From the UHGV virus genome UHGV-2156197: DNA of 40,124 bases; one strand, written 5' to 3'. Of the stretch, positions 28,559 to 39,655 are shown piece after piece. Both the position numbers and the translations under genes were made by a program. Numbering within the stretch: position 1 is the stretch's first letter; the number at the start of each line of letters is the position of its first letter. Origin of the DNA: a virus. The notes below the pieces were generated by a model. That model did not search any database, was not told the origin of the DNA, and saw nothing but the letters and a program-made list of their open reading frames with translations.

Positions 28559-30489
28559 GCCACCTCCTGCTGTTGCACTGCACACAGTTCCGGAAGATTT
28601 GCCTCAACCAGCGCCCGGGCGAATGGTGGTGGTACCGCATTACCGCAGCGGGCTACCTGCTTATCTTTTGCATAGCGATTTCCACGGTAGTCCTGATCAA
28701 TAACGTAACCATCCGGGAAGCCCTGCGCTTTGTAGAGTTCATGCGGCTGCAACATGCGCATTCCGATATCAACGATCTGGTATTTAACCCCATCGATCGT
28801 TACCAGCCATTCATCGTCACTTTCCCCGCAATACGTCTCGAGAAATGTGCGTACCTCACCCACGTGTTGGCCACCAGCAGTGATTGTTGGCATTGGCACA
28901 TCAAGGCGTTGCCCGTCGCGGCATGTTCCACGCAGTTTCACCAGATGAGAGGCAACTACCGCATGATGGTCGACAGTGGTCACTGAATGCGCGGGTTCAT
29001 CCATACTGACACCCGGCCCCGTATAGTTACCGCCGTAGTGTTTCGCCAGGAATGCGCTCACCGTCGCAAATTTATTTCCGCCTGCAGTAACGGTCCCCAG
29101 CGGGTTATCCAGTCGCAGCACACGCGGTTCTTGTCCAGGTCGTTCGCCATAACCCATCTGAATCAGCGTAGGCGTTACCAGTTGAGATTTACCGCCACCA
29201 CCAGCGGTGATGGTTGCGCTCGGTTCGTCTGCACGGTGGCCGACGCTGGCCCCAAACTGGCGGGCTATCACTGGCGCAACAAGACAGGCTCGGGATTGCT
29301 TCAGAATGGTATGAGCAGGTTTATTCAGCGGGCGCGGTTTAGCCTGGTATTCACTACCACCATTACCCGCCAGGAATGGTGTCAATGCAGCCTCAACAAT
29401 CCCGAGAGCATGCCCGTTCCCGCCCGGGCGTTTTGACGTGCCAGCGGTTACCGTCGGAACAGGTTCGGTAACGGGCTGCCCGGTTGCGCCAGTGCGGAAT
29501 TTTGTAAGGTGTGGAACGGCTAACGCGTAGCCGAGTTTTTTAGTAATGGTCTGTAATGGCTCATTCAGTGACTGTCCGCGAAAAGCGTCATACGCATTTT
29601 TTGAGCTCGTGTGGTTGCACTTCACGATAAACGGCGACGCACTTTCGATAACAAAGCGCTGTATGCCGCGTGCGATCCGCTTCAGAGTGTTCTCTGCCAG
29701 CGGTTTTTTGCGGTCGAAGATGGACAGAGCCGGAACATTCCAGTCGATACATTCCGCAGCGGTACGCCATGGCATCAGCCTGCCGCTCTGCACCTCCAGT
29801 GACTTGGGATCCCCATGGGTTACAACAGGCCACTGAATAGGGCAACCATCGCAGCGCATAACCATGAAGAAGCGTTTGCGGATCGTCGGCGCGCCGTAAT
29901 CACACGCGCGCAGTTCGCGATAATCAACATCATATCCAAGCCCTTCCACCAGCTGTTTGGCCTGCGTGCTGCCAGGATCAATAGCAAGAAATTCGCAGAC
30001 CTCCGCCAGTGCCGGGTGATCGGCAGGAATGCCAGTGGAAAGCATGCCGACAAAAGCATTGAATGTTTCGCCAGTGCGGGCAGGGTCTGGACGCATTTCA
30101 TCGGCCAGCAGCGGTCCCCACGTTTTAAACTCTTCCACGTTCTCCAGCATCATCACGCGCGGTCGCTTCGCCAGTGCCCAACGCAGAACGATCCAGGCCA
30201 GACCGCGTATCTCTTTTTTCACAGGCTTTGCGCCTTTGGCCTTTGAGAAGTGTCGGCAGTCCGGGCTAAACCATGCCAGGCCAACAGGATTGCCGCCGGT
30301 GGCGGCTACCGGATCCACGTCAAATACGGATTCACAGTAATGCAGTGTGTCAGGGTGGTTCGTCTTGTGCATCGCAATGGCGTTTTCGTCGTGGTTGATC
30401 GCAATATCCACGCTGCGTCCGATCGCCAGTTCAATACCCGTTGATGCACCACCGCCACCAGCAAAGTTATCAACGATAATCTCACGCAT
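28555..30489 (-). CDS. DNA (cytosine-5)-methyltransferase, unusually long, with repeated target-recognition-like segments
   Basis: 644 aa; motif I FAGGGG, motif IV SPDCRHFS, motif VI ENV, motif X GNAV; four TxTAGG repeats in the variable region. Confidence 0.85.
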   Translation of the reverse strand: MREIIVDNFAGGGGASTGIELAIGRSVDIAINHDENAIAMHKTNHPDTLHYCESVFDVDPVAATGGNPVGLAWFSPDCRHFSKAKGAKPVKKEIRGLAWIVLRWALAKRPRVMMLENVEEFKTWGPLLADEMRPDPARTGETFNAFVGMLSTGIPADHPALAEVCEFLAIDPGSTQAKQLVEGLGYDVDYRELRACDYGAPTIRKRFFMVMRCDGCPIQWPVVTHGDPKSLEVQSGRLMPWRTAAECIDWNVPALSIFDRKKPLAENTLKRIARGIQRFVIESASPFIVKCNHTSSKNAYDAFRGQSLNEPLQTITKKLGYALAVPHLTKFRTGATGQPVTEPVPTVTAGTSKRPGGNGHALGIVEAALTPFLAGNGGSEYQAKPRPLNKPAHTILKQSRACLVAPVIARQFGASVGHRADEPSATITAGGGGKSQLVTPTLIQMGYGERPGQEPRVLRLDNPLGTVTAGGNKFATVSAFLAKHYGGNYTGPGVSMDEPAHSVTTVDHHAVVASHLVKLRGTCRDGQRLDVPMPTITAGGQHVGEVRTFLETYCGESDDEWLVTIDGVKYQIVDIGMRMLQPHELYKAQGFPDGYVIDQDYRGNRYAKDKQVARCGNAVPPPFARALVEANLPELCAVQQQEVA

Positions 30490-31363
30490 GGGTTACCCCC
30501 TGCATGCTGCCAACAAGACCACGCGCAATTGTGATAATTTCGCTGGTGGCCGTTCGTTCCAGCCAGAGTTGATTGATGTTGGCTTTCAGTTTGTTCTGCT
30601 GGGCCTCGCTCAATACATCAACGCCTTCCACCTGGTTAAACACCAGACCAACCTCGAGAGGCCAAATTCGTGACTCAGTTTCCGGTGTTGCTGCTGGTTC
30701 CTTAGCTGCCTGCATTGCAATTGTTTGCTCTTTACCAACGGCGAATTGAGCCAAAGCCATAAACGCCCGCCCTTTTTCTTCCAGTTCGGTACGGCTGATG
30801 TAGCTGAAACGCTCTCCGCGCCATGACTTATCAAAGATTGCAATAGCACCAGCAAAGAAAGCACCAGTGGGCTTCTGCTTATCATCAGCAGGAACAAACC
30901 ACACAGGGAGATCGAAGCCAATACGACCGCGGATAAACATGATGTGATCGGCATCTTCCGGCCACCATGTTTCACTTGTCGCCGCTTTAATGAGGAACAC
31001 GTAACGCCCACTCTTTTCACGCATTTCCATTGTGCGATCCATGATGTGGGTCATGCCGGTTATCGCCTGTTTCTCGTGGTACTGCGAACGGCTATATGGT
31101 GGATTACCGAATGCGGCCCCGCCGATTGATTCCAGCATTTCCGCCCAATCTTGTACCAGCGCGTTATCTTCGGCGGTGTACCACACAGGGCACTTAGCGT
31201 TATCGTCATCAGCAAAGAGATCCAGCGTCAGCGGGCCGAACATCGCATTAATGCCCCAAAAAAGCAGGTCCGGTGTCCGCCACTGATCGCCAACTTCTTT
31301 CAATTCGTGGGCTGGTTGGCTACGTAGTGCCACCAGCGCCTGGCAATATTTGTTTAACGTCAT
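30482..31363 (-). CDS. phage-type DNA N6-adenine methyltransferase (Dam family)
   Basis: 293 aa; WRTPDLLF and GNPPY motifs; about 100-aa C-terminal extension. Confidence 0.75.
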   Translation of the reverse strand: MTLNKYCQALVALRSQPAHELKEVGDQWRTPDLLFWGINAMFGPLTLDLFADDDNAKCPVWYTAEDNALVQDWAEMLESIGGAAFGNPPYSRSQYHEKQAITGMTHIMDRTMEMREKSGRYVFLIKAATSETWWPEDADHIMFIRGRIGFDLPVWFVPADDKQKPTGAFFAGAIAIFDKSWRGERFSYISRTELEEKGRAFMALAQFAVGKEQTIAMQAAKEPAATPETESRIWPLEVGLVFNQVEGVDVLSEAQQNKLKANINQLWLERTATSEIITIARGLVGSMQGVTHA

Positions 31364-32217
31364 CCTCTGAACCCCTCTGGAATCGTTGTTTCAACCGGAC
31401 CAAAAGCCATCACATCGCGCTTTTTCGCTCCCCAGTCAGCACGTTTAGGCCGTCCCTTCTGCTCCCAGCGGGTAGCGCTTTGCAGATAGCTCTCGAATTT
31501 CTTCGGGCCAAACAGCGTTTCCGGTCGCATGTACTGGTACTGCTCGTCGTTCTCGTGCCAGTGCTCATGCTTCAGGTCGATAACAAGTTGCAGGTCTGCA
31601 ACGCTGTATCCCTCACGCAGTCGGGCACGGATGTTCTCCAGGGATGTTTTTGATTTCTGATACCGGGATCCGCTGATTTGGTTCAAATGGGTCAGAACCA
31701 AAATTGCCTGATCAGTAATCACGACTTCAGGGTCTGGTTGCGCCGCAACCGGACAAGAGGGTTTTGAAGTTACTTGTGGATCTTGTTTTGATTTTACTGA
31801 CGGATCCCCGCCAGATTCTGACGGGTCAAAACCGCCGTTTTTGCCAGATTTCGACGGGTCAGTTTTTGAGGCGTCAAAATTTGATGCGTCAGATTTTGAC
31901 GTGTCAGAATCTGACAGTTGAGAAAATGCGGCAGCCTGAAGTTTCGCCACATTCAGGCGGTACACGTTCGACGCATTACGGTTACCATTACGGCGCTGTG
32001 TACGCGTGAGCCAGCCATCTTTTTCAAGCTTTGCGATTGCCGTTCTGATCGTGCTCGGCCCTGCGCCAAGCTGGCGAGCAATAGTTTCAATGGACGGCCA
32101 GCACACTCCCTCATCGCTGCTGAAATCAGCGAGGCGAGCCATGATCGCGACACTAGACAACTTCATGCCCGACGCCGCGCAACCATCCCATACGTAGCCG
32201 GTTAATTTAGTGCTCAT
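31360..32217 (-). CDS. replication initiator / replisome organizer (O-like)
   Basis: 285 aa; N-terminal HTH, low-complexity SD/SK linker, C-terminal conserved phage replication domain (LVLTHLNQISGSRYQ...); iterons inside the gene. Confidence 0.7.
   Translation of the reverse strand: MSTKLTGYVWDGCAASGMKLSSVAIMARLADFSSDEGVCWPSIETIARQLGAGPSTIRTAIAKLEKDGWLTRTQRRNGNRNASNVYRLNVAKLQAAAFSQLSDSDTSKSDASNFDASKTDPSKSGKNGGFDPSESGGDPSVKSKQDPQVTSKPSCPVAAQPDPEVVITDQAILVLTHLNQISGSRYQKSKTSLENIRARLREGYSVADLQLVIDLKHEHWHENDEQYQYMRPETLFGPKKFESYLQSATRWEQKGRPKRADWGAKKRDVMAFGPVETTIPEGFRG
31798..31921. repeat. origin-like iteron array inside the replication initiator gene
   Basis: Seven copies of TGAYGNGTCA-like 10-mer (31798, 31819, 31852, 31867, 31882, 31897, 31912); last five at exact 15-bp phasing; AT-rich tract just downstream. 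Confidence 0.6.
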
Positions 32218-32226
32218 GATCGTCCG

Positions 32227-32553
32227 TTATCTCCCTGAACTTTTGCCTGAAATGCTCAAGTGGGCTGAAGCATTCGTGCGGGTAGCCATCACGCAGGTAG
32301 ATAACGCGTTGTGTTTCTGGTTCCCAGCGGATAACACGGACAGACACTCCGCGGTGGTCTTTGAACCTTCGGTTAAGTTCGCGCACAGGCGTTTTGCCCT
32401 CCGGTTATAGACCCCCACAATTGAAACCGCCCTACTGTGGTTACACGGAACCCAGCGGTTTGATAATCTGCGTTCATACCGAAACAACGGAGTACCCGAA
32501 ACCGGGATCATCCTGAGTTGCGGTAGACGGTTAAAAGCCGTTAAACTGCTCAT
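32227..32553 (-). CDS. hypothetical protein (weak call)
   Basis: 108 codons from ATG 32553 with GGAG 11 nt upstream, co-oriented in the pR operon; composition not very protein-like. Confidence 0.25.
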   Translation of the reverse strand: MSSLTAFNRLPQLRMIPVSGTPLFRYERRLSNRWVPCNHSRAVSIVGVYNRRAKRLCANLTEGSKTTAECLSVLSAGNQKHNALSTCVMATRTNASAHLSISGKSSGR

Positions 32554-32558
32554 GCGGA

Positions 32559-33110
32559 TTATTTCTCCATACTCGAAGAGTTGTTCGCCAAGGCGCCCGG
32601 AGCTGCACACTCGCGGGCGTCACTCTTTTCAGCGACACAAAAAACTCGATAAAGAAGCGTTACGTGCTCCTGGAACTTCGCGATAACCTGATAGCTGTTT
32701 TCCTCAATCTGAGCACGCTCATCTGCGTCAATTACCCCATCAGCCGTGGCTTTACGTACAAAATTAGAATGACGACCTATCCATTCAATGGACTCCATCA
32801 GGCGCTGGTTTATATCGGCGTTATCCAGATCATCAACGTCTGCCAGCGGTACAAATACGCCCTGAGAATGGCGCGCAACGGCATCAGCAATATGAGTTGA
32901 ACCACCAGCACGTTGTAAAACCATTGCCCAGCCCAGCGGGAAGATTTGGTCGCCGTCAACACGAAGGCGGTTGAACAATGCGTTCTCTGTCACGCCCAAC
33001 CATTCCGCCGCCTCGGCATAACCACCAGGAAGATCGGTGATCGTTTTTTTTATCGCCGCCACCAGCCAGGCTGGCTGACGTTCGACTTTCCAAATAGGTT
33101 CGTTACCCAC
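32559..33110 (-). CDS. CII-like regulatory protein
   Basis: 183 aa, HTH-like segment; first gene after cro-like; GTG start with GGGGGGAG SD; family assignment uncertain. Confidence 0.45.
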   Translation of the reverse strand: MGNEPIWKVERQPAWLVAAIKKTITDLPGGYAEAAEWLGVTENALFNRLRVDGDQIFPLGWAMVLQRAGGSTHIADAVARHSQGVFVPLADVDDLDNADINQRLMESIEWIGRHSNFVRKATADGVIDADERAQIEENSYQVIAKFQEHVTLLYRVFCVAEKSDARECAAPGALANNSSSMEK

Positions 33111-33120
33111 AGCTCCCCCC

Positions 33121-33348
33121 TTATTCCTGTGGTTTGAGTTTTACTGAAGCATCGCTACGCTTTTCGTAAAGGTCGGGATGAAAAACCAATTTCCCCCCGG
33201 TTCGATATGCTGCTTCAGCTGCACGCCCTTTTGGGATAAGGCGACCAGTTCTATTACGCCACTGGTAAACAGCCTCGCTTGTGATTCCAAAAAATTCGGC
33301 AACCTTCTCAGTACTGCCGAAGTAGTTTTCAATATCATCGGTTGTCAT
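33121..33348 (-). CDS. Cro-like HTH repressor (YdaS-like)
   Basis: 75 aa; HTH FGSTEKVAEFFGITSEAVYQW; divergent from cI-like gene; AAGGAGG SD. Confidence 0.7.
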   Translation of the reverse strand: MTTDDIENYFGSTEKVAEFFGITSEAVYQWRNRTGRLIPKGRAAEAAYRTGGKLVFHPDLYEKRSDASVKLKPQE

Positions 33349-33450: not shown

Positions 33451-34077
33451 ATGGAAACTGTCGGTCAGCGCATCAAAGCTCTCAGGCGCATAACCAAAAC
33501 CTCGCAGAAAGAACTGGGTAAGTTCTGCGGTGTTAGTGATGTGGCGGTTGGGTATTGGGAAAAAGACGTTAATGTGCCTGGAGGCGAGTCACTTGCGAAA
33601 CTTGCAAAGTATTTCAACACATCAATTGATTACATACTTTATGGCACTGAATTTGAAGGCAATCTGATAACCAAGATGCGAAGGATTCCGGTGATATCCT
33701 GGGTTCAGGCTGGACAGTTTACAGAATGTAAAGCAGCAGAAGTTTTCAGCGAAGTAGATAAGTGGATAGAGACATCACTCCGCATAGGGGATAGCTCCTT
33801 TGCATTGGAGGTTAAAGGTGATTCGATGACAAACCCTAATGGCCTCCCGACAATCCCTGAAGGGGCAACAGTCATAGTAGATCCAGATGCAGAGCCACTT
33901 CATGGAAAGATAGTCGTAGCCAGGCTTGATGGGACAAACGAGGCTACTGTAAAAAAACTTGTCATCGATGGGCCTCAAAAGTTCTTAGTTCCCTTAAATC
34001 CACGCTATCCAAACATTTCAATTAACGGTAATTGCCTGATCATCGGCGTTGTCAAAGGCGTTCAGTACGAGCTTTAA
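33451..34077 (+). CDS. CI-like repressor (XRE HTH plus S24 LexA-like autopeptidase domain)
   Basis: 208 aa; N-terminal HTH; C-terminal GDSM...KK catalytic Ser/Lys dyad of S24 peptidases. Confidence 0.85.
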   Translation: METVGQRIKALRRITKTSQKELGKFCGVSDVAVGYWEKDVNVPGGESLAKLAKYFNTSIDYILYGTEFEGNLITKMRRIPVISWVQAGQFTECKAAEVFSEVDKWIETSLRIGDSSFALEVKGDSMTNPNGLPTIPEGATVIVDPDAEPLHGKIVVARLDGTNEATVKKLVIDGPQKFLVPLNPRYPNISINGNCLIIGVVKGVQYEL

Positions 34078-38720: not shown

Positions 38721-39655
38721 GCGAAATCAGCCAAACAGAACGAGTGTCAGACGAAGAACTCGACCAGATGATATGGAAGTTAGAACGTGATGGTATGACG
38801 CCAAAGCAGCTTTCGCTGATGAGAGAGCTGCGGGAGCGAAGGAAGGCTGTGGGTGAGCCGGTGGCGCAGATTGAAATAATTAGCGGTGTTCTGGTTAACG
38901 AGAGATGGATGCATAGTTCACTGCCAAATGGATGGCATGATTTATATGCATCACGGCTATCAGGTAATTCCGAACAACTCGAACCTGTAAGTAATCGTGA
39001 TGAGTTGAAAAAGGGATTGGCAGCCATTCGTAACTCGGGCATAGCAATCGACGGCGATATCTCCGCTTCTGACGCTGATAAGCTTGCGTCGATTATTCGT
39101 AAGTGGGCCGACGCACCAGTGCCTGCTTCCACAGATGAGCGGGAAGCATTTAACGCTTGGAATAATGATATTGACTGCCCTCTGGCTGGGCTTACTACCA
39201 AGCAAGCAGCATGGCTGGCATGGCTTAAACGTTCAGGCACCATCAAAACTTTCGACGCTATAAGTCCGCCTTTCAAGGTGCATGACGAGTTTGAGGTATG
39301 GGCCAAAGCTGAGGGATTAATACATGATTCATATGGCCTGAGAACCATTAATTCTAGTGCTGATGTTGCGAGAAAAGCATGGAACGCTTGCCGCGCCGCC
39401 ATGCTTCAGGCCGATGGTACCCTTACCAATGAGGGCACCATACATACTGGCAACTCTCCGGCAACTCCGGATTGTTGGTGCCGTACTTGCCGTCCCGTAA
39501 CGATGAGTGACATGCGATTTGTCGTTTGCCCTGACTGTGGAAACAAGCGCTGCCCTCATGCCAATGACCACAGGAATGTTTGCGCTGGAAGTAACGAGCC
39601 AGGACAGATTGGTAGCGCATATCCAGCAGCACCGCAGCAGGAGGTGAAGCCGTGA
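38717..39655 (+). CDS. hypothetical protein with C-terminal Cys-rich (zinc-ribbon-like) region
   Basis: 312 aa; C-terminal CWCRTCRP...CPDCGNKRCPH; ATGA coupling. Confidence 0.6.
   Translation: MSEISQTERVSDEELDQMIWKLERDGMTPKQLSLMRELRERRKAVGEPVAQIEIISGVLVNERWMHSSLPNGWHDLYASRLSGNSEQLEPVSNRDELKKGLAAIRNSGIAIDGDISASDADKLASIIRKWADAPVPASTDEREAFNAWNNDIDCPLAGLTTKQAAWLAWLKRSGTIKTFDAISPPFKVHDEFEVWAKAEGLIHDSYGLRTINSSADVARKAWNACRAAMLQADGTLTNEGTIHTGNSPATPDCWCRTCRPVTMSDMRFVVCPDCGNKRCPHANDHRNVCAGSNEPGQIGSAYPAAPQQEVKP

Follow-up and report, generated by a model that had tools for sequence, protein, structure and literature searches.

The virus genome UHGV-2156197, a stretch of DNA of 40,124 nucleotides (nt) that we call the window, carries an array of short palindromic repeats inside a gene for a putative O-like replication initiator. 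The locus raises the question of whether these repeats are kept as DNA, in the role of a replication origin, or for the peptide that they encode. This is the key question, because the array doubles as a peptide repeat. An initial annotation of the same DNA had likened the array to ori-lambda inside gene O. We estimate at roughly 0.8 the probability that a lambdoid prophage has its replication origin in this array, within the stretch of its initiator gene that encodes the linker. A predicted origin extending over 31762-31921 is the best explanation of the features described below. The likeness to ori-lambda is supported by gene identity and operon, synonymous constraint, conservation, module swapping and layout, all of which were read from sequence.

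We observed seven copies of a 10-mer inside the initiator open reading frame (ORF), at 31798-31921, with 0-2 mismatches to TGACNNGTCA. Five of these copies follow each other at exactly 15 base pairs (bp), with starts at 31852-31912. Both observations agree with the initial annotation. The gaps between successive starts were 21, 33, 15, 15, 15 and 15 bp, and the degenerate copies were the outermost two of the seven. In the array region, 0.50 of the bases matched themselves at a lag of 15, compared with approximately 0.23 at other lags. Clusters of at least four TGAN4TCA motifs within 130 bp were found in none of 500 Markov simulations of the window. Therefore the seven-copy array cannot be attributed to chance. 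Outside the array the motif occurred in the window only as lone matches at chance frequency, and it clustered solely at 31810-31915. The seven copies lie at approximately nt 297-420 of the initiator gene, between the regions encoding the HTH_36 domain (amino acids (aa) 23-70) and the Phg_2220_C domain (aa 174-246). Read on the minus-strand ORF, the array is translated as ...SDSDTSKSDASNFDASKTDPSKS..., part of a low-complexity linker, as had been proposed. Both TGACNNGTCA and an alternative unit described below, GTCA-N5-TGAC, are palindromic, so that each repeat has a dyad symmetry of its own, as would suit a dimer.

The two domains identify the gene. Both matches of the 285-aa protein exceeded the Pfam gathering scores (HTH_36: E = 4.5e-12, 46.0 bits, cut-off 25; Phg_2220_C: E = 1.3e-23, 83.2 bits, cut-off 27), which places the protein in the HTH_36 + Phg_2220_C (TIGR02220) class of phage initiators. 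Weaker Pfam matches in the N-domain were to GntR, MarR and DnaD_N, and the best PHROGs families were 'primosomal protein' and 'replication initiation O-like'. The genes around the initiator are arranged as cI / cro / cII / DUF4222 / O / Dam / C5-methylase / RusA / Ant / DUF968 / Q. All of these genes are on the minus strand except the cI-like repressor, and the lambda order is kept. Judged by this order, the initiator sits in a pR-type cro-cII-O early operon, and transcription is predicted to pass through the array. A scan of 13 ORFs in the interval 25.7-39.7 kb gave no initiator, helicase or loader (P, DnaB, DnaC) besides the O-like gene. A promoter and terminator scan of 31300-32700 gave nothing above chance, including no internal promoter within the array.

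For the comparison of DNA-level and protein-level constraint, we aligned the codons of a non-redundant set of 22 genes of this type (pairwise identities below 97%). In the N-domain (codons 8-98) synonymous diversity was 0.450 and diversity at codon positions 1+2 was 0.065. Replacement sites were near-fixed there and synonymous sites diverse, which is the pattern of ordinary purifying selection on a protein. In the array and linker (codons 99-157) the pattern was reversed (0.074 and 0.117, respectively), and after the linker (codons 158-180) the values were 0.347 and 0.194. The drop in synonymous diversity over codons 99-157 was highly significant (Mann-Whitney p = 2e-19). A positive control with lambda-type O genes was dropped because their divergence was too small (identity was 99-100% among 80 IMG/VR loci and at least 92% for almost all relatives in GenBank).

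Codon choice in the array was restricted as well. Inside the units Ser was always encoded by TCA, while AGC prevails in the rest of the gene, and Asp was always encoded by GAC. The codon preceding GAC had T as its third base irrespective of the amino acid. Residue X of the D-X-S motif was T, A, P or S, the four residues with NCN codons, so that the middle C was kept and the amino acid was not. G was never found at unit position 13, while AAG makes up 38% of the Lys codons of the window. When the codons of the same protein were resampled according to the usage of the window (5000 trials), TGACNNNTCR averaged 0.26 occurrences and never exceeded 3, compared with 5 observed. In view of the synonymous dip, the fixed codons, the kept middle C and the resampling result, the DNA sequence of the array itself is under selection, beyond the selection that acts on the protein. 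The initial annotation had stated that DNA and protein repeat constraints coincide. This needs correction: of the two, the DNA constraint dominates.

The best-conserved stretch of all is not the tandem array but a 45-bp block that lies just downstream of it in the coding direction. The block contains the copies TGACGGGTCA (31819-31828) and TGACGGATCC (31798-31807) and an invariant GATC. In the 22 sequences synonymous sites elsewhere differ by approximately 45%, compared with approximately 0 in the block. The same stretch is identical in SfIV and phiNP.

The unit that is conserved differs from the one first described. We calculated information content over 54 distinct units, for which positions 1-3 and 8-10 were used in picking the units and positions 11-13 were not. 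It was high at TGA (1-3), TCA (8-10) and AAA (11-13), and low at positions 4-7, that is at the centre of the earlier 10-mer, which is its most variable part. In this alignment the conserved core of the 15-bp unit reads TCAAAA-NN-TGA. It spans the supposed spacer and stands half a period off the 10-mer, which did not hold up as the conserved unit. In the alternative register, tandem 13-mers of the form GYCA-N5-YGAS start at 31843, 31858, 31873, 31888 and 31903. Further plus-strand cores of this kind (GTCA-N5-TGAC, with an AT-rich centre) start at 31810 and 31789. We lean slightly towards TCAAAA-NN-TGA (GTCA-N5-TGAC), rather than TGACNNGTCA, as the binding unit. Short arms around an A/T-rich centre were also seen in the 23-bp repeats of Hafnia yong2 and Kp4884-3 and in the lambda iterons, and structural reasoning suggests that a helix-turn-helix dimer fits half-sites 9 bp apart better than half-sites 6 bp apart.

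The array was present in every relative examined (SfIV, phiNP, YeP1, Phi06_2987 and 80 of 80 IMG/VR loci). Homologous initiators thus keep the repeats, whose loss in homologues the initial annotation had named as evidence against its reading. In 86 genes of this type (type A) the number of tandem units ranged from 3 to 8, mostly 5, and changed in steps of 15 bp. The extremes were one IMG/VR locus with 8 units (L036, 1785-1995) and one with 3 (L064, 1785-1940), which differ in steps of five codons. DNA relatives of the N-domain and array were found in 1850 of 5426 complete E. coli genomes.

Comparison of relatives also revealed a mosaic junction in the gene. SfIV-type phages match only 31778-32217, the part with the N-domain, the array and the AT-rich side. 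In the Salmonella phages 118970_sal3 and F1055 the match is confined to the C-domain side, 31360-31765. The junction falls just beyond the AT-rich tract, where the conserved peptide PSCPVAAQPDPEV is encoded. The lambda record carries misc_recomb features at 39157 and 39165 (L084, 1158-1167), an equivalent place just after the lambda AT-rich region. Six N-domain types are found on one C-domain family, and each has its own repeat family at the same position of the gene. Besides type A, these are 118970_sal3 (period of 23 bp), Hafnia yong2 (ATTCCATTGGGACAAATTGTCC, 23 bp), Kp4884-3 (GGTCAAAATGAC, 23 bp), Kp4882-1 (GGGAAAGTCCATTCCGGGAAATG, 23 bp) and mEp390 (irregularly spaced repeats), all of which join another N-domain to Phg_2220_C. 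SfIV carries the same N-domain and 15-bp array as the window on a C-domain that is a homologue of the lambda O C-domain (BLASTP E = 1e-25). Since the type-A cassette occurs with C-domains of two kinds, and since the repeats change with the N-domain, we conclude from these comparisons that N-domain, repeats and AT-rich tract behave as one exchangeable cassette, placed like the ori-specific half of lambda O.

The initial annotation had also pointed to an AT-rich tract beside the array. The tract is real, though modest. A nearest-neighbour stability scan gave -46.7 kcal/mol for the least stable 40-mer of the gene (31762-31801), compared with a gene mean of -57.0 (standard deviation 3.3). The 40 bp at 31760-31799 contain 32.5% G+C, and the 40-mer starting at 31760 is at the 98th percentile of instability across the window. 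The least stable 40-mer lay directly after the repeats in nine of ten initiator genes, including the lambda control, in which the scan recovered the known AT-rich region after iteron 4. The nearest candidate for a DnaA box, AGATCCACA, matched at 7 of 9 positions; it is not conserved among homologues and was rejected. A second class of repeat was seen in the Klebsiella and Salmonella relatives, whose least stable tract, beyond the iterons, consists of a 12-bp tandem repeat, CTACAGAGATTA x3, which encodes TEITTEITTEI (L090, 1430-1465; L089, 1456-1491; L003, gene nt 517-556). Kp4866-6, a type-A relative (L088, 1459-1494), has GATCCGTCATTA x3 with an imperfect third copy (GATCCGTCATCT). Coordinates of the features of the window are collected in Table 1.

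Table 1. Coordinates of the putative origin, the initiator gene and the neighbouring genes in the window.
Feature	Position	Strand	Basis or remark
O-like replication initiator gene, 285 aa	31360..32217	-	ORF, Pfam, PHROGs
N-terminal DNA-binding domain coding region (aa 1-98), presumed iteron-recognition module	31924..32217	-	Pfam
Tandem array, five 15-bp units	31843..31921	none	10-mer register starts 31852, 31867, 31882, 31897, 31912
Iteron-like copy TGACAGTTGA	start 31912	+	2 mismatches to TGACNNGTCA
Iteron-like copy TGACGTGTCA	start 31897	+	0 mismatches to TGACNNGTCA
Iteron-like copy TGATGCGTCA	start 31882	+	1 mismatch to TGACNNGTCA
Iteron-like copy TGAGGCGTCA	start 31867	+	1 mismatch to TGACNNGTCA
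Iteron-like copy CGACGGGTCA	start 31852	+	1 mismatch to TGACNNGTCA
Variable spacer, tandem array to distal conserved block	31829..31842		peak nucleotide diversity of the linker (gene nt 372-386)
Iteron-like copy TGACGGGTCA	start 31819	+	0 mismatches to TGACNNGTCA
Iteron-like copy TGACGGATCC	start 31798	+	2 mismatches to TGACNNGTCA
Near-invariant 45-bp block	31787..31831		coding strand TTTTGACCCGTCAGAATCTGGCGGGGATCCGTCAGTAAAATCAAA; diversity ~0 at all three codon positions, 22 sequences
AT-rich, least stable 40-mer of the gene, candidate DNA-unwinding element	31762..31801		promoter-distal side of iterons; 30% GC
Mosaic junction, N-domain/iteron/AT-rich cassette versus C-domain	31765..31778		DNA similarity break
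Phg_2220_C (DnaD-like) coding region, presumed host-replisome recruiter	31480..31698	-	Pfam
C-terminal tail IPEGFRG (aa 279-285)	31363..31383	-	conserved (I/V)PxGFR(G/N/S)
cI-like repressor gene, divergent	33451-34077	+	Pfam Peptidase_S24 with HTH_3
cro-like gene	33121-33348	-	Pfam (P22_Cro / Phage_CP76 among operon matches)
cII-like gene	32559-33110	-	Pfam (P22_Cro / Phage_CP76 among operon matches)
DUF4222 gene, 59 aa	32207-32386	-	PHROG 1343, no assigned function; overlaps initiator start by 11 nt
Dam-type adenine methylase gene	30482-31363	-	directly after initiator
C5-cytosine methylase gene, 644 aa	28555-30489	-	directly after Dam-type methylase

These parts suggest how the putative origin would work. 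Upon induction, leftward transcription from the early promoter on the cro side would pass through cro, cII, the DUF4222 gene and the O-like gene. The winged-helix N-domain of the O-like protein would then bind the five packed 15-bp units and the two distal copies in the 45-bp block, and the resulting nucleoprotein complex would strain the adjoining AT-rich 40-mer until it melts. The C-terminal DnaD-like domain, perhaps together with the IPxGFRG tail, would bring in the host helicase. The route through O, P and DnaB used by lambda cannot apply as such, because no helicase loader gene is present.

In ori-lambda, O dimers bind to four 19-bp inverted repeats, next to which comes an A+T-rich region of 40 bp; the whole lies within gene O and is transcribed from pR (PMC5043065, PMC7466680). 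The locus in the window is similar in that dyad-symmetric repeats lie in the linker-coding middle of the gene (lambda nt 349-433, here approximately nt 297-431) and that the least stable, AT-rich tract of about 40 bp is directly promoter-distal of them. Both have a cro-cII-O early operon and a mosaic junction just beyond the origin. The number of repeats varies in both (4 in lambda and 6 in Stx phages (PMC5043065, PMC7466680); 3 to 8 tandem units here). The two differ in that their N-domains have no detectable sequence similarity, that the spacing is 20-24 bp in lambda and 15 bp here (23 bp in four related types), and that the repeat is ATCCCTCAAAACGAGGGA in lambda and TCAAAA-NN-TGA here. Moreover, the C-domain here is Phg_2220_C by direct Pfam match, and the P gene is absent. 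On this comparison of sequences, all tested structural features of ori-lambda are present in the window, and what sets it apart is lambda O sequence membership and two secondary features, the two-turn spacing and the P gene.

Several points weigh against an origin of the lambda kind. Literature searches turned up no experiment that shows binding or origin function for initiators of this type. By sequence the N-domain falls outside the lambda O family: no match to PF04492 (Phage_rep_O) was obtained at E <= 0.01, while lambda O itself gives 5.7e-36, and BLASTP between the two initiators gave E = 0.74. No P-type loader gene follows the initiator, the next genes being Dam, C5 methylase, RusA, Ant, DUF968 and Q. 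At 30% G+C, compared with 23% in lambda, the AT-rich tract is a modest one. The spacing of 15 bp corresponds to approximately 1.4 helical turns, which is far from a whole number of turns and from the 20-24 bp (roughly two turns) of ori-lambda. Neighbouring sites would therefore face nearly opposite sides of the helix, and the array, though regular, is out of helical phase. Of the term 'phased', used in the initial annotation, the regular spacing stood and the helical phasing did not, and a lambda-like wrapped complex cannot simply be assumed. Finally, low synonymous diversity could reflect a recent recombinational spread of one linker segment. We regard this as unlikely, because invariant and highly variable sites interleave every few bases in the array.

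Three other explanations of the repeats were weighed against the origin. If slippage had produced a five-codon D-x-S-K-x repeat that is kept for the length or flexibility of the linker, the repeats would be a by-product with no role of the DNA in cis. The linker (approximately aa 99-160) is indeed of low complexity, rich in Ser, Asp, Lys, Pro and Gly and outside any Pfam domain, and copy number shifts by whole 15-bp units, as slippage would give. An AlphaFold2 model of the initiator, predicted from the single sequence, showed no secondary structure at aa 103-162. The mean predicted local distance difference test score (pLDDT) of this model was 54.9 and only the C-domain was confident (pLDDT 80-90); the model speaks weakly for disorder of the linker, because the N-domain was poorly predicted as well. 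We nevertheless consider this explanation very improbable. Synonymous sites are six-fold less diverse than in the folded N-domain although amino acids change, the codons are fixed (TCA for Ser, GAC for Asp, AAA and never AAG) and X keeps its middle C. Codon resampling of the same protein almost never rebuilt the motif, and the repeat family tracks the N-terminal domain and not the C-terminal neighbour of the linker. A function through secondary structure, either as a hairpin of the early mRNA that affects translation or stability or as a cruciform or single-strand hairpin of the DNA, is hardly credible. A 151-nt stretch does fold better than its shuffles (z = -4.06 as RNA; z = -5.65 as single-stranded DNA), but we observed no covariation in the 22 aligned homologous arrays (paired cells 88.9% compared with 89.0% in shuffles; pairs changed on both sides 2 compared with 2.1), and most substitutions break pairs. 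Strong pairing is expected as a by-product of repeated palindromic units, and an RNA or single-strand hairpin was rejected for this reason. A cruciform could form transiently as a consequence of origin function.

The repeats could also be protein-binding sites that are not an origin: an autoregulatory roadblock or operator, a decoy against superinfecting relatives, or sites for another phage or host protein, with the origin elsewhere. Joint inheritance with the N-domain is compatible with this, as it shows that the two belong together and not what the binding does. Plasmids with lambda ori iterons were reported to inhibit rep-lambda phages (PMC3349717), and many E. coli prophages retain truncated genes with the N-domain and the array. 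On the other hand, the least stable tract of the gene adjoins the array, an order of parts shared with lambda and eight other initiator genes. The motif forms no second cluster in the window, and the scanned ORFs hold no other initiator. Lambda combines autoregulation and exclusion with origin function, and the same could hold here. We consider binding sites without origin function improbable, and an origin in the initiator gene remains the preferred reading of the array.

Among known systems, the closest are the O proteins of SfIV, SfII and related E. coli prophages, annotated as 'replication protein O' or 'primosomal protein'. They share the N-domain and the 15-bp array with the window, with approximately 83% DNA identity over 31778-32217. 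The 45-bp block is identical, the position in the operon is the same and a P gene is absent in both. They differ in having a lambda-O-like C-domain (E = 1e-25 to lambda O) instead of Phg_2220_C. The SfIV genome paper covers the replication module and mentions neither an origin nor repeats. The gene 18 origins of P22 and L consist of four repeats of approximately 20 bp and six imprecise 11-bp repeats, respectively (PMC8022706). As here, each has its own repeats inside its own initiator gene, a likeness drawn from their description; they differ in initiator family and repeat sequence and in having the gene 12 DnaB-type helicase. With Phg_2220_C/DnaD-like replisome organizers the initiator shares its C-domain family, which occurs in many Firmicute, Vibrio and Aeromonas phage initiators. 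Those phages usually have a dedicated helicase loader and/or helicase, and their N-domains and repeats are unrelated. One Bacillus phage Phg_2220_C record is annotated 'replisome organizer and ori-binding protein'. In SPP1, oriL lies inside the gene of the initiator G38P. An origin within the initiator gene is a recurring arrangement. Iteron plasmids (RepA, pi, RepE; direct repeats of approximately 19-22 bp) are similar in their winged-helix initiator, repeated sites and adjacent AT-rich element (review PMC4980987). They differ in that their iterons lie outside the rep gene at approximately two-turn spacing and that copy number is controlled by handcuffing. No Rep_3/RepA-type domain was found by Pfam in the initiator, whose repeats are inside the gene, and it does not belong to the iteron-plasmid Rep class.

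The locus shows the standard lambdoid layout in a widespread type of origin, which is useful for annotation and not surprising. We found no prior description of this origin type in literature searches, which did not cover the SfV genome paper. Only the 15-bp packing and the loader-less design go beyond the textbook case, and they might hide a new mechanism. Given the near-contiguous packing (approximately 1.4 turns per site, 3 to 8 units), the initiator may not wrap the origin in the manner of lambda O but coat it as a continuous helical filament, with neighbouring dimers nearly opposite, and load the host helicase without a P-type loader through the (I/V)PxGFRG tail. We hold this proposal to be rather doubtful. 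If true, a single protein would suffice to fire a phage origin, by a minimal and mechanistically distinct route.

The locus offers a concrete origin candidate for the replication module found in approximately one third of complete E. coli genomes and in prophages of Salmonella, Citrobacter, Shigella, Yersinia and Klebsiella. Maps of origins are needed for understanding prophage induction, the in-situ 'onion-skin' amplification of neighbouring host genes and the incompatibility of co-resident prophages. According to a recent report, the Lamassu defence system detects the lambda origin during replication, at the iterons of gene O (PMC12663957), and knowledge of other phage-type origins therefore has a direct use. 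The dip at synonymous sites is, in addition, a cheap and general finder of origins that lie within initiator genes.

The conserved motif (I/V)PxGFR(G/N/S) was found at or near the C-terminus of the initiators of sal3, mEp390, Hafnia yong2, Kp4884-3, Kp4882-1 and SfIV (gp41). Lambda O, which works with P, does not have this tail. It is common to two unrelated types of C-domain (Phg_2220_C and lambda-O-like) in phages without a visible helicase-loader gene. The motif may serve as a peptide to which a host replication protein docks.

The initiator protein occurs with 100% identity in Salmonella enterica, Citrobacter and E. coli. The names that it often bears in public annotation, 'GntR family transcriptional regulator' and 'conserved phage C-terminal domain-containing protein', mask its likely role as an initiator. 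Searches with the full-length protein gave only proteins of 98-100% identity, too shallow a set for a structure-prediction alignment. A Foldseek search of the AlphaFold2 model (mean pLDDT 54.9) against PDB gave no match at E <= 0.001, and a sequence search of solved structures gave only marginal matches to the winged helices of MarR and PaaX (E approximately 0.03).

Searches with the N-domain alone matched mostly truncated or fused fragments. Many E. coli prophages (among them P0015, P0050, P0060, P0096, P0103) have truncated or fused initiators, and in some of them deletions have joined the N-domain, after approximately aa 79, to RusA, terminase and others. A 168-aa form of the initiator (329 member sequences) has lost its frame at the A-run of the AT-rich tract. 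An N-domain without a C-domain, with or without iterons, could dominantly inhibit related incoming phages.

GATC sites occur at 31667, 31710, 31779 and 31803 (150 bp, 31654-31803), within and alongside the AT-rich tract, which is their densest cluster in the window. Only 2.3% of 150-bp stretches contain at least three GATC, and the site at 31803 is invariant among homologues. A Dam-type adenine methylase is encoded immediately behind the initiator, so methylation may influence firing of the putative origin.

In the E. coli matches shown, a DUF4222 gene is also annotated beside the initiator. The best Pfam stretch of the C5-cytosine methylase spans just its first approximately 120 aa, which suggests a large insertion or extension.

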